From the IMG/VR virus record IMGVR_UViG_2721755651_000007: a stretch of DNA of 64,000 nucleotides. One strand, 5' to 3'. The notes beneath the pieces were generated by a model that saw only the letters and a program-made list of their open reading frames with translations, made no database searches and was not told the origin of the DNA. The translations under genes and the position numbers were made by a program. Shown piece by piece: positions 23,252-27,355 of this stretch (position 1 is the stretch's first letter; each line of letters starts with the position of its first letter). Source of the stretch: a virus (taxonomy: Duplodnaviria; Heunggongvirae; Uroviricota; Caudoviricetes).

Positions 23252-23467
23252 TCAGCTGATACTGATGCCTGCGGTGGCTTTCTTCATCACCACAACCAGC
23301 AAATCGCTGATACTTGCTGTGGGATACCAGTTATTCACCAGCCATGCTGACACCGAAAACTCCAGCGTCATGTGACCGTGACCGGCAGGCATATCAATAA
23401 CGCCACTGTAAATCAGCGTATTATCCAGCGCGGTACGGTTATAAATTTCAGCACCGTTTTTCCGCAC
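23252..23467 (-). pseudogene. C-terminal fragment of tail tip protein J in shifted frame
   Basis: ...[15 protein letters not shown]...[10 protein letters not shown] aligns to lambda J C-terminus. Confidence 0.6.
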
Positions 23468-23469
23468 TA

Positions 23470-26400
23470 TCAGACGGCATGAGGAGTAAATATCAGTATG
23501 CTCTCTCTCTCATGTTTAGCGCCGCTGAATGCCACCGCCGGAATAACAATCTGCCGGTCAAACGGCTGATCGTCATAAACCCTGACGGTAATGGTCCCTG
23601 ATGGCCACCGTTCCGGTGCACGGGAGTCCCGGGGGAAAGCTTTGCCCACTGTTTTAACGAGATCGCCTTCAATCTGGTTCGCGGACAGTTTTCCCAGAAC
23701 CCGACAGTTCTCGTTAATCGTGACGTTGTTGAGCGTCCCGGAGTTCGCATTCACACTGCCACTGATATCCGCATTTTTAGCGGTCAGCTTTCCGTCTGAT
23801 GTCAGGGAAAATGCCGGAGGATTGCCGCCACTGGTAATGGTGGGAGCCGTCAGATATTTCAGGAACACTTCATTCATGAATATCTGATCGCCCTGACCAA
23901 CAAACATCGGCTTTGTGTTGCCATTCGCAGGATTAATCATCGCAATCCTGTCTGCCGCCAGCAGCACCTGACTCTGCATGCCGTCAGAGGTGTTCTCAAT
24001 ACCGGCACCGATACCCGCAATATAAAGGCGTCCGTCCTGCATCTGCTGCAGCTTCACTGCCCACATGCTGTTCAGGTTATTATTTGTATCAACCTGAACC
24101 TTCTGTATCTGCTGGATCGCTGCACTCTGGTCTTCCAGTTTCTTATTGACGGTCTGCGTGATTTCATTACTGACATCCGTGATGGACGTTCTGATTTCCG
24201 CCAGGTCAGGCGCAAGCTGACCGTTATCAATCTGAGTCCACAACTCCTGAGCCAGATGGGTTTTCCCTATCTCTCCTTTGAAAAAATCCAGATAGCCGGA
24301 TGCATCATCACTCGGCTGGCCAACAGCCTCCACAAATGCCGATTTGCCAACGGTGTTCACACTGCGGATATAAAAGTAATAATCATGGCCCGGTTTGATA
24401 TTGATACTGGCGGCTATCCAGTACAGCCCCGTGCCAAGGTAGCGGGCTGTGGTTTCAACCTGCCTGATATCGGTAATCCGCGTTTCCGAAAACCAGAACT
24501 CAAACTGTACCGTCGGGTCATACACCGCAAGACGCGGGACCGCTGTTATCTGAAAATAGCCCGGTGTCAGCTCAATCTGTGACGGCGCTGCCGGTGCGGC
24601 AATCCGGAACGATACCGACGCCGGATCGCCCTGCTGCCCCCACGCATTTACCGCCCGGACTGTCAGCCTGTAGTTCCCCGGCGCCAGTTGCGTGAAGCGG
24701 TATGTGGTTTCCGTCGTCCGGGCCGTGCTGACCAGCCGCTCACTGCCGTCATCCGCGGCCACGGTCAGGCGAAGCATAAAGCTCACGCCCTTCACCACCT
24801 TCGGCGTGTCCCATTTCGCCTGCGCCAGATACTGACCGTCAGCTGCGCTCACCTCCACCGTCAGGTGCTGCACTGCCGGAGGGATGACGCTGTTCAGGGT
24901 GCCTGACTGCGGCTCAAAGCGGGCACCGTTATCCACGATGGCTTCTTTTTCCGGTACGTGCTGCACCGCCGTGATGGCAAAGGTGCCGTCCGTGTTTTCC
25001 CGGATGGAGACACAGCGGAACAGGCGACGACGCAGTGACGGCAGGGAGAGCCCCCACACACCGTATGTCTCCACGCCATCCGGCAGGGTGCTGACCTGTA
25101 TCCGGTCCGGCGCGGGGTGTGCAGTGATGGCCACGCTCACCGGCTTACCGCTGCCGTTAATCAGGTTCACCGTGGCGGCACCGGTCTCCGGCAGGGTCAC
25201 CTCACGGTCCAGTGTCAGGGTGCGGCTGGCGGCATCGATGGACAGGATACGTCCGCCGGTCATGGTCCCGGCATAGTCGTTATCACAGATTTCAATAATG
25301 TCACCGGGTGTGTGACGCAGCCCCTGTGACCCGAGCGTGAAATCCACCGTCTGCGTTTCCAGCAGTCCGGTCTTTATCACCCACAGCCCGGCACGGTGGG
25401 CCTGACCGCGACTGGTGCAGCCGAACGCATCCATCTTCAGCAGGTTGCGTCCGTAGCGCAGTATGGCTTCCGGGTCTTCCACCAGTTCCGTGGAGGTCTG
25501 CCAGCCGTTCTGCGGGTCGGTGTAATTCACCTCCACCGCCGTGTGGCGGTCCTTCAGGGCGCTGAAGCTGTAGCGAAACCCCACGCCGTTATCATCCACC
25601 ACCACATCACTGCTGGTGTAGGGCCACACCACATCTGACGGACGGTCCTGCACAAACGTCAGCGTCTGCCCGTTCCATACCGGCATACAGCGCATCGCCG
25701 AGCAGAAATCACTGAGAACGTCCCACGCCTTACGCTGTTGTGACAGGTACGCATTGAAAGTCATCCGCGGCTCTGTGCCCCCGAAACCATCCGGGACCGT
25801 CTGGTCGCAGTACTGCGCAATGGCATACAGCGCCCACTTGTCCACATCCGCCGCCCCCAGGCGTTTTCCCATTCCGTAGCGCGGGTGGGTCAGCATGTCC
25901 CACAGGCACCAGGCAGGGTTGTTGCTGTATGCCGGTTTCAGGCTGCCGTCCCAGATGCCGCTGTACGTGCGTTTTTCCGGGTCATAGTTTGACGGTACCT
26001 GGATGATGCGACCGCGGATATGGTAGTTCACCGTCATCTGCTGACCGCCAAACTGCTCCGCATCCACCTGCAGCCCCACAATCGCCGTGTTCGGGTAGCA
26101 CTGTTTCACATCGATGATTTCGGTGTATGACGACCAGAGCGTCTTATTCTGCAGCTGGTCCGAGGTGCTGTCCGCTGTCTCCCGGACCATCCGGATGTTA
26201 AAGGGCCGCTCAGGCAGATTATCCAGAATCACCGACGCCAGAAACTGCGAGGTGGTCTTGCCGTTAATGGTGACATCCTTTTCCGTCACCCAGTTACCGT
26301 TACGCTGCAACTGAATCAGCAGTCGGACAGAAGAGTGATTACGGTCGCCCTTTGAGGTGGTCTCCAACAGTGACTGCACCCCGAAGGTGACCCGCAGGCG

Positions 26401-26730
26401 GTCAATGTTCGCGGACGTAATGGTGCGCGTCACCGGCTTTGCCTTCGTCACTTCCACGCCCAGTGCGGTTTCCGCCCCGGAGGACTCAAAGCCTTCAGGT
26501 GGTGTCTGCTCCTGCTCCCCGGCGCGCCAGACCGCTGTCACACCATGTATCACAGGATTACCGTCCGTGTCCGTCAGCGGGGTTTTGTTCACCAGGATAC
26601 TCTGCAGCCCCTTCACCGGACCTTCAATCGGCCCTTCACCAATGGCATCAATCACGCTCATCATCTGCGTGGACTTAAGATTGTCCTTTGCCTCTACCGG
26701 CGTGTGCGCCTTGCCGCCACCTTTGCCCAT
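23470..26730 (-). CDS. J: tail tip / host specificity protein J (C-terminal frameshift)
   Basis: [22 protein letters not shown]... collinear with lambda J over ~1080 aa. Confidence 0.85.
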
Positions 26731-26917
26731 TGTCTCACCCTTTACTGTGATAACTGTTACGCACAAAAACAACAGGCATCCCGGAGGATGCCTGTATCAT
26801 GACTGAATAAAACTTCTGAATATCTTCACATTTTCACAAACTGACTGTGGTGCTAATAATTTCTCTGCGTTAATGTTTTTTTGCCCGAGCACCAGAAACA
26901 AAAATAACTCCTTAACG

Positions 26918-27355
26918 TTAATCTTTGTCTGTCCCCGCAACTCTGCGGGATTTTTTTATTCTTTTTACCTCTGCCGCCCGATAACCACGACCGCCCGCCA
27001 CAAAATTCACCGCATCCAGAAAACGGGCATACACCCGGCGGCGGACCACCGTGGCACCCACCAGGCTCTGCAAATCCTCCGCCATCCCGGTGACAAGACC
27101 GAACAGATTGGACACCGTCAGCGACGGGCGGGCACTGCTGCCCTTTCCGTTCATCTCAAAGCCACTGCCCTCAATCGGGTACGCCTGATATTGCCGCCCC
27201 TGCCAGGTCACCGGCTCCCTTTTTTCATTCAGCTCATTGCAGAAAAAATACCGCTCACCGCCCTGCACCGTCAGGTCGATTTCCCAGAGCACCACCCGCG
27301 GTGACTGCTCTGACTTAACCGACTCGTTCAGGCTTTCTTCATGAATATTCTGCAT
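26918..27355 (-). pseudogene. L: minor tail protein L, truncated
   Basis: Matches lambda L ~130 aa (VVLWEIDL...GERYFFCNE...VTWQGRQYQ) then diverges and stops; K and I homologs absent. Confidence 0.7.

Follow-up and report, generated by a model that had tools for sequence, protein, structure and literature searches.

A decayed tail-tip module with a PasB sRNA homolog in its I-J spacer in a defective lambdoid prophage of Escherichia coli O157:H7

The minus strand of prophage B carries the tail genes of this phage, and in the 64,000-nucleotide stretch of DNA analysed here (the window) these very probably include the decayed tail-tip module of a defective lambdoid prophage that is the counterpart of Sakai Sp12: M is followed by a truncated L (L'), a deletion that has taken K and I, and a frameshifted J (J'). 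O157:H7 genomes match the window at 100% identity over 14 kb, and the gene order past an Sp11-like integrase remnant (DinI, IS elements, nleG7) is that of Sakai Sp12; by these two measures the window is from E. coli O157:H7 and prophage B lies at the position of Sp12. The decay of the tail-tip genes at this locus is ordinary and already annotated, as existing RefSeq/PGAP labels record an incomplete L, a frameshifted J and a broken portal gene. Because the portal gene of prophage B is broken too, the tail lesions are not the sole block. A search for tandem repeats in the portal pseudogene with Tandem Repeats Finder gave none in the window.

Truncation of L and loss of K and I

The module was compared with an intact reference from strain OkiPb01717 (locus L002), in which L, K, I, a spacer of 235 bp and J follow one another. 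The features around the deletion are as follows.

27355..27696, minus strand: tail gene M, 113 aa, intact (tblastn, 99% identity to the L002 M over 113 aa)
26993..27355, minus strand: L' pseudogene, which keeps codons 1-121 of the 232 in minor tail protein L (tblastn, Pfam, PGAP)
26992..26993, no strand: deletion junction (blastn break at L002 4365|6001; base-by-base comparison)
26918..26992, minus strand: out-of-frame tail of the L' ORF, 24 codons plus TAA (translation, sequence)
26965..26992, minus strand: what is left of tail assembly gene I, its final 28 nt (aligned to L002 6001-6028, where the annotated I ends)

M forms the upstream flank of the lesion. Strain 319 is 100% identical to the window, and its M bears the PGAP name 'phage tail protein'.

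L' starts with an ATG at 27355, and its codons 1-121 are 96.7% identical to the intact 232-aa L (tblastn). It covers positions 3-93 of the 206 in the Pfam profile Phage_tail_L (PF05100), as against 3-206 in the intact relative; the window copy does not span the full profile and is thus a truncated pseudogene of that family. PGAP describes it as 'incomplete; missing C-terminus', with an end exactly at window position 26993. The Fe-S cluster of gpL is bound by cysteines in its C-terminal half. The initial annotation had described an L resembling that of lambda for ~130 aa and then stopping. The truncation is borne out, but the match ends at 121 codons and is followed by 24 out-of-frame codons, for an ORF of 145 aa in total with its TAA stop at 26920-26918. 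These out-of-frame codons cross the I remnant and the complement of the terminator of the sRNA gene described below.

Relative to the intact reference, the deletion is 1,635 bp long (L002 4366-6000) and comprises the rest of L, the whole of K, and I minus its last 28 nt, of which the TAA stop is still present at 26967-26965. K and I had previously been noted as absent, which holds: the JAB plus NlpC/P60 protein (K) and the Lambda_tail_I protein (I) are missing between L and J. Homologs elsewhere in the prophage, for which the same annotation had left room, were not found either, as the L002 K and I queries gave no tblastn match in the whole 64-kb window at E<=1e-3. Base-by-base comparison with L002 revealed no microhomology at the joint 26993|26992, and the only flanking repeats around it are weak chance repeats nearby. 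This joint is not unique to the window, being found in 232 of 5,426 E. coli genomes. A deletion without homology at the joint has very probably joined L codon 121 to I, 28 nt ahead of its stop codon, with the native I-J spacer left intact.

The I-J spacer and its PasB homolog

From the L' stop to the J ATG (26730) there are 187 nt, and two hairpins (26934-26949 and 26772-26795) are present; in all, 4 terminator-like sites were observed in 26600-27200, compared with 0.5 expected from shuffles. The gap and its hairpins had been reported before, as ~190 bp that replaces the rest of L plus K and I. The size and the hairpins are confirmed, but the DNA replaces nothing: alignment to its relatives resolves it into the final 28 nt of I and the native 234-nt I-J spacer. 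Read alone, a non-coding, AT-rich stretch of ~190 bp with two strong hairpins could pass for foreign DNA, either the scar of an IS or MITE or an imported cassette, put in place of the 3' half of L, K and I. However, sequence of 99.1% identity to the window lies between an intact I and J in OkiPb01717, and variants occupy the same position in EPEC E2348/69, in the Escherichia phage PhiR12_2 record and in Sakai Sp12, the spacer copies having been compared in a five-way alignment. In addition, the window is continuous with the intact relative from 28 nt before the I stop onward, and neither terminal repeats nor a target duplication were found around the ~190 bp. Replacement DNA is refuted by the intact relatives that carry the spacer between I and J, and a foreign origin is regarded as extremely improbable.

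The native spacer is widespread. A 226-nt spacer query had matches in 1,842 of the 5,426 E. coli genomes (about a third), at a median of 2 places per genome, and in 147 phage records. Where these matches overlap an annotated feature, the feature is always the 3' end of I ('tail assembly protein'). Two features were mapped within the window copy.

26833..26957, plus strand: pasB homolog, antisense to the tail genes (promoter/terminator scan; alignment to EPEC PasB)
26772..26795, minus strand: hairpin 2, a 10-bp stem with a 4-nt loop, then UUGUUUUUG (terminator scan)

The spacer carries a homolog of the PasB sRNA gene with its own predicted sigma-70 promoter and intrinsic terminator. The promoter consists of a -35 element TTCACA from 26833 and a -10 element AATAAT to 26860 (spacing 16, score 10/12), the mature 5' end of EPEC PasB corresponds to 26882, and hairpin 1 is the terminator stem (26934-26949), followed by a run of seven T (26951-26957). 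The homolog has a fold z-score of -2.5. In EPEC E2348/69, PasB is an Hfq-dependent sRNA as determined by Northern blot and RIL-seq (PMC8550237). According to table S6 of that report, it is located at 1466343-1466261 on the minus strand, between I (ends 1466255) and J (starts 1466496) of prophage PP6. The window copy occupies the same I-J slot, likewise on the strand opposite the tail genes, with homologous promoter, body and intrinsic terminator. It is 76 nt long compared with 83 nt in EPEC; when the two are aligned, 64 positions match, 6 mismatch and 19 columns are gaps. Three indels account for these gaps: in the window copy 6 nt are inserted close to the 5' end, 4 nt are deleted, and the terminator loop is 9 nt shorter. 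Within the promoter region, 44 of 49 positions match the EPEC copy. The distribution of PasB is the subject of a separate study (bioRxiv 10.64898/2026.05.13.724894).

The covariation analysis gave an invariant terminator stem and a 5' stem, the latter from an alignment that mixes two body types. The terminator stem does not vary in any of the 15 aligned variants, although MAFFT gaps 4 of its 7 pairs in the shorter copy of the window, and covariation thus speaks neither for nor against this stem. There is no Rfam model for PasB, and Rfam yielded no credible family in the spacer, whether at gathering thresholds over the whole window or at permissive E-values over 26650-27100; the best match, Hrs1, scored 22 bits where its gathering score is 56. 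Likewise, an EcOnc sRNA at the Sakai I-J spacer was not found in the supplements of Tree et al. 2014. The sRNA svsR of the AIEC prophage NC-SV was considered for this slot and rejected, as svsR lies at the 3' end of cI.

Hairpin 2 sits 41 nt upstream of the J ATG on the tail-gene strand, with a fold energy of -19.3 kcal/mol (z = -5.7). It is kept in intact relatives, with a compensatory T-A to C-G change between variants, and from this pattern it is a terminator-like element native to the I-J spacer and no deletion scar. The strong hairpins beside this deletion would thus be native regulatory elements, one of them belonging to a known sRNA gene, and no sign of a scar or an insertion.

It could be proposed that selection shaped the end-point of the deletion so as to keep pasB and the downstream cargo, and that the remnant is domesticated instead of neutral debris. 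The deletion halts 35 nt beyond the PasB 3' end, with promoter and terminator intact, and further downstream the reading frames of lom, nleG7 and the tail-fibre genes are still open. However, this was a single event that chance could have placed there, and the genome holds other copies of the spacer (see the median above). Selection on the end-point is therefore considered unlikely.

The J frameshift and its distribution

The second lesion of the decayed module lies near the end of J, where the following features were found.

23470..26730, minus strand: J' pseudogene of the tail tip attachment protein J, 1,086 codons long (ORF list, translation, Pfam, PGAP)
23502..23511, no strand: (GA)5 dinucleotide run, a +2 frameshift relative to (GA)4 in intact J (gapped alignment to the L002 J; regex count across loci)
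23252..23467, minus strand: displaced C-terminal J fragment, 71 codons, in the next frame and with the native stop (Pfam PF12421)

From its ATG, J' retains the Pfam domains FNIII-A, Phage-tail_3, Ig_J, Ig_J_second and Tail_Tip, and its ORF ends 10 aberrant codons past the slip; its PGAP label is 'frameshifted'. The J' frame loses the native last 83 aa, of which 71 are read in the next frame, in agreement with the earlier observation that the C-terminal ~70 aa of J are in a shifted frame. The receptor-binding domain (PF12421, 135 positions) is split as a result, with positions 1-49 in J' and 65-135 in the 71-aa ORF, and the window copy lacks the contiguous domain that runs from 1 to 135 in the intact relative. 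The change would be the gain of one GA unit, (GA)4 to (GA)5, by a slipped-strand event within this C-terminal domain.

Could the J frameshift, the deletion or both be errors of sequencing or assembly? Dinucleotide runs are error-prone on some platforms, and close relatives with (GA)4 exist. However, 217 independent complete-genome records, Sakai included, have (GA)5 within exactly the same 101 nt of sequence, the deletion junction recurs in the 232 genomes mentioned above, and the Sakai annotators break J at the same place (ECs_2233/ECs_2234). An artefact of either kind is therefore hardly credible.

Judged by their distribution, the deletion and the J slip are independent events that are polymorphic among close relatives, since Sakai has the slip without the deletion (L, K and I intact, with (GA)5) and in strain F3398 and at a further locus, L106, the deletion goes with (GA)4. 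The J of F3398 is intact, at 1,158 aa. Among the six copies with both sites (five fetched loci and the window), (GA)4 and (GA)5 split 4:2. Compared with the (GA)5 haplotype, L106 is otherwise unchanged over the 175 nt compared and F3398 differs by two linked SNPs, and (GA)5 is also present on the divergent Sakai J allele (95% identical). With both GA states on near-identical haplotypes and (GA)5 on the divergent allele as well, at least two events are needed, and in each lineage the change may have been a gain or a reversion, in either direction. As O157 lineages can carry either lesion without the other, the two could be used as lineage markers. The occurrence of intact and slipped J on one haplotype would be an example of slippage, or gene conversion, that continues among the numerous sibling prophages of O157.

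The same two observations, both states on near-identical deletion-bearing haplotypes (L106, F3398) and (GA)5 on a second allele, could also suggest a reversible, selected slipped-strand contingency switch of the receptor-binding domain, with no one-way decay. Several findings argue against such a switch. The tract is very short at 4-5 units, and states of 3 or 6 units were never seen. The (GA)5 matches listed are all O157:H7, and ~2,700 other records have no (GA)5 copy in this context. Moreover, J is irrelevant to the phage's own tail in this lineage because K and I are gone, and recombination between the J copies of sibling prophages accounts for the pattern just as well. A selected switch is thus very unlikely. 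A combined proposal, in which the GA run is a recurrent and possibly reversible slip site and the deletion was tolerated or selected for sparing pasB and the lom, stf and nleG cargo, is also very unlikely; if it were true, the 'dead' tail module would be a domesticated carrier of an sRNA and effectors with a switchable J.

A decayed module remains the preferred reading. In lambda tail assembly, there is no autonomous tail tip without K, I and the C-terminal half of L. On that basis, prophage B would be unable by itself to assemble a tail tip or bind a receptor, and the initial proposal that it likely lacks functional tails gains support from the loss of K, I and the C-terminal half of L and from the split receptor-binding domain of J. 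The prophage would persist as a carrier of cargo, namely lom, tail-fibre genes, nleG effectors and pasB. The L-spacer-J stretch recurs in sibling lambdoid prophages of the same genome, with 7 matching places in strain 319; therefore, it is conceivable that tail proteins are supplied in trans by these siblings, as has been argued for O157 prophages (PMC2669165). Overall, the region represents routine prophage decay in a heavily studied pathogen, with both pseudogenes already marked publicly.

Comparison with Sakai Sp12 and lambda

Sp12 of Sakai has the same chromosomal position as prophage B and the same neighbours (Sp11 integrase remnant, DinI, IS cluster, nleG7, tail fibre and lom). Its J has the same (GA)5 frameshift and a displaced 71-codon piece, ECs_2233, equal in length to the window fragment (216 bp), and its portal is defective as well. 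In contrast, L, K and I are intact in Sp12 (ECs_2238, ECs_2237 and ECs_2236, respectively), and its J, 95% identical to that of the window, has a second break (ECs_2235 and ECs_2234) and is thus in three pieces. Its I-J spacer departs from that of the window in the promoter-distal part, a distinct variant with another hairpin. Sp12 has been scored as defective for host specificity, portal, head and integrase, and showed no excision, replication or packaging (PMC2669165).

The gene order M-L-K-I-J and the protein families match those of lambda, with Phage_tail_L, JAB plus NlpC/P60 for K, Lambda_tail_I and the gpJ domain series recognised by Pfam, and the J of the intact relative matching lambda gpJ structures (8iyk_J, 1,720 bits). 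On the lambda map, I and J abut. Unlike lambda, this phage group has an I-J spacer of ~235 bp with an antisense sRNA gene, and in the window the module that surrounds it is broken by a deletion and a slip.

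Deletion and frameshift in the tail genes

Comparison with the intact tail module of strain OkiPb01717 (locus L002), which consists of L, K, I, a 235-bp spacer and then J, bears out the initial annotation in describing a truncated L, missing K and I genes, and a J frameshifted at its C-terminus. The corresponding features of the window are as follows.

Tail gene remnants of prophage B
27355-26993, minus: L', codons 1-121 from the start at 27355, 96.7% identical to the 232-aa L of the intact relative (tblastn)
26993/26992: deletion junction (alignment to L002)
26730, minus: start of J' (MGKGGG...), which has all gpJ domains as far as the receptor-binding domain PF12421
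23467-23252, minus: displaced J C-terminal ORF, 71 codons, PF12421 positions 65-135

L' covers only positions 3-93 of 206 of Pfam Phage_tail_L, and past codon 121 its translation runs through 24 unrelated codons to a TAA at 26920-26918. With the intact relative's K and I as queries, tblastn found no match within the 64-kb window. The window is colinear with L002 to position 4365 and picks up again at 6001; the absent 1,635 bp comprise the last 111 codons of L, the whole of K, and I minus its last 28 nt. No bases are common to both sides of the joint, so illegitimate recombination is a more probable origin of the deletion than an exchange between repeats. The junction is present in 232 of 5,426 complete E. 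coli genomes, and among the records listed at 100% identity for it, 30/30 are O157:H7 or unserotyped strains of comparable source. PGAP labels the L remnant 'incomplete; missing C-terminus' and ends it at exactly the junction base.

In J', PF12421 is represented by positions 1-49 only. Alignment places one extra GA in the run at 23502-23511, CAT(GA)5GCAT versus CAT(GA)4GCAT in intact J; after this slip, ten wrong residues precede a stop and the native final 83 aa are lost. The exact 101-nt (GA)5 context recurs in 217 records, including Sakai (101/101), and (GA)5 is therefore a true allele and not a read error. Approximately 2,700 other records have solely copies differing from the 101-nt query; among their close copies that were sampled, the majority are 99-nt (GA)4 alleles. 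The PGAP label for J is 'frameshifted'.

The I-J spacer and its PasB homolog

Between the stop of L' and the start of J lie 187 nt with two strong hairpins, where the initial annotation had noted ~190 bp with two hairpins; its proposal that this sequence replaces the missing genes is not upheld. Over its full length the window spacer can be aligned with those between I and J in OkiPb01717, EPEC E2348/69 and an Escherichia phage PhiR12_2 record; with the Sakai Sp12 spacer the alignment is only partial. A 226-nt spacer query matched 1,842 of 5,426 E. coli genomes and 147 phage records, and the annotated features under the matches were always the 3' end of I ('tail assembly protein'). The spacer is native and nothing was inserted, the deletion having ended 28 nt before the end of I.

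Predicted elements of the spacer
26772-26795, minus (tail-gene strand): hairpin 2, located 41 nt upstream of J, with a 10-bp stem and then a U-rich tail
26833-26860, plus (antisense to the tail genes): predicted promoter TTCACA-16-AATAAT, 10/12 consensus positions (promoter scan)
26934-26949, plus: hairpin 1, an intrinsic terminator followed by seven T (terminator scan)

Hairpin 2 (folding z = -5.7) is also found in intact relatives, with a compensatory T-A to C-G change between variants, and may halt non-antiterminated transcripts ahead of J. Hairpin 1 is the predicted terminator of a homolog of PasB, an 83-nt, Northern blot-validated RNA of EPEC E2348/69 with Hfq-dependent stability (PMC8550237). 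PasB occupies the minus strand of NC_011601.1 from 1466343 to 1466261 (PMC8550237 Table S6). There, I finishes at 1466255 and J begins at 1466496, which puts PasB inside the I-J spacer on the strand opposite the tail genes; similarly, a 2026 preprint describes PasB as embedded in a phage structural gene operon (bioRxiv 10.64898/2026.05.13.724894). The window matches EPEC PasB at 44/49 positions of the promoter region, and with 64 matches, 6 mismatches and three indels in the RNA body. The window copy measures 76 nt, starting at the equivalent of the mature 5' end (26882) and closing with the last T of the run (26957), and its fold is better than that of shuffled sequence (z = -2.5). There are 32 distinct PasB RNA variants across 125 loci; the terminator stem is retained in 15/15 aligned variants, and covariation is thus uninformative there. 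Rfam has no model for PasB RNA.

In L036, a related IMG/VR prophage locus, the pasB promoter is broken just past the -35 element, and the unrelated sequence downstream resembles an IS3-family terminus; this would be an independent route to PasB loss. Other small RNAs of the window include DicF (12461-12512, plus), adjoining dicB in prophage A, and the sok antitoxin RNAs of hok/sok type I toxin-antitoxin loci, one per prophage (3764-3938 and 52149-52298, both minus). Downstream of the prophage B Q region, an ncRNA cluster (46911-47522) contains the AgvB anti-sRNA (46911-46970, plus), STnc100 (46972-47180, minus), and two tRNA genes (47293-47366 and 47450-47522, both minus). STnc100 is reported to be structurally related to PasD (2026 preprint, bioRxiv 10.64898/2026.05.13.724894).

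Relation to Sakai Sp12 and independence of the lesions

Window positions 20000-34000 are 100% identical to complete E. coli O157:H7 genomes, for example strains 319 and 180-PT54. The gene order begins with a prophage with truncated integrase and RecE, then DinI and an IS256 remnant interrupted by ISEc8, and continues with nleG7, tail-fibre genes, lom, J, L, M and the tape-measure gene, the tail genes being on the minus strand. Since this is the arrangement of the Sakai Sp11/Sp12 junction, prophage B is the counterpart of Sp12.

Several further interruptions and variants were observed in the window. At ~15400-19060, ISEc8 (IS66 family; tnpA, tnpB and a 512-aa transposase at 17087-18625) sits inside an IS256-family transposase gene, the two halves of which flank it. 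An IS1203/IS629-type IS3 element (~5490-7090), with an ALIL frameshift pseudoknot at 6415-6531, breaks a prophage A gene for a small DNA-binding protein, and PGAP annotates partial and intact pieces on either side of it in strain 319. An NleG-family effector gene (~20568-20921, minus) adjoining intact nleG7 (~19208-19858) has an internal stop and is a PGAP pseudogene in strain 319; its TW14359 counterpart is an intact DUF1076 protein. The tail fibre protein (21306-22526, minus) has a long collagen-like Gly-X-Y repeat region, a type already known (PMC3368898), and its gene is 1,215-1,224 nt in the O157 relatives 319, TW14359 and Sakai versus 1,314 nt in OkiPb01717.

State of the two tail lesions by locus
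Sakai Sp12: L-K-I deletion absent; (GA)5; J split in three by an extra break
F3398 (L127 6046-10147): deletion present; (GA)4; J intact, 1,158 aa
L106 (IMG/VR locus): deletion present; (GA)4; otherwise identical in the displayed 175 nt surrounding the GA tract
Window, TW14359, strain 319 and locus L043: deletion present; (GA)5; J frameshifted

This distribution shows that the L-K-I deletion and the J slip are independent lesions, and requires at least two slip events, or one slip together with gene conversion between sibling J copies. Over 4.2 kb the F3398 locus has 99.83% identity to the window, and its two SNPs within ~100 nt of the GA tract fit a short conversion tract, which suggests gene conversion from a sibling prophage J in this strain.

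Probable loss of function and known prophage decay

In lambda, the tail initiator is built from J, assisted by I, L and K, and H, M and V are added afterwards; the J C-terminus binds the receptor. Because K, I and half of L are missing and the J receptor domain is split, prophage B alone presumably cannot make a working tail. The earlier expectation that functional tails are unlikely is thus reasonable from lambda genetics but incomplete, as the portal gene (33911-36432, minus) is also a pseudogene.

Portal pieces
34594-36432, minus: 612 aa
33994-34539, minus: 181 aa
The last 35 aa are in another frame.

In the 100%-identical strain 319, PGAP labels the portal gene 'frameshifted; internal stop'. 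The TW14359 portal is intact (859 aa), and therefore the portal lesion is polymorphic too. Given that seven places in strain 319 match an L-spacer-J query, it is conceivable that sibling prophages supply tail proteins in trans, and such siblings have been argued to be able to complement one another (PMC2669165).

Sakai Sp12 itself was scored defective in portal, head, host specificity, integrase and repressor, and showed no excision, replication or packaging (PMC2669165). The region is a case of already-known prophage decay: both tail pseudogenes are already flagged in RefSeq, the J (host specificity) defect of Sp12 is in the literature (PMC2669165), and the spacer RNA falls in a described sRNA family.
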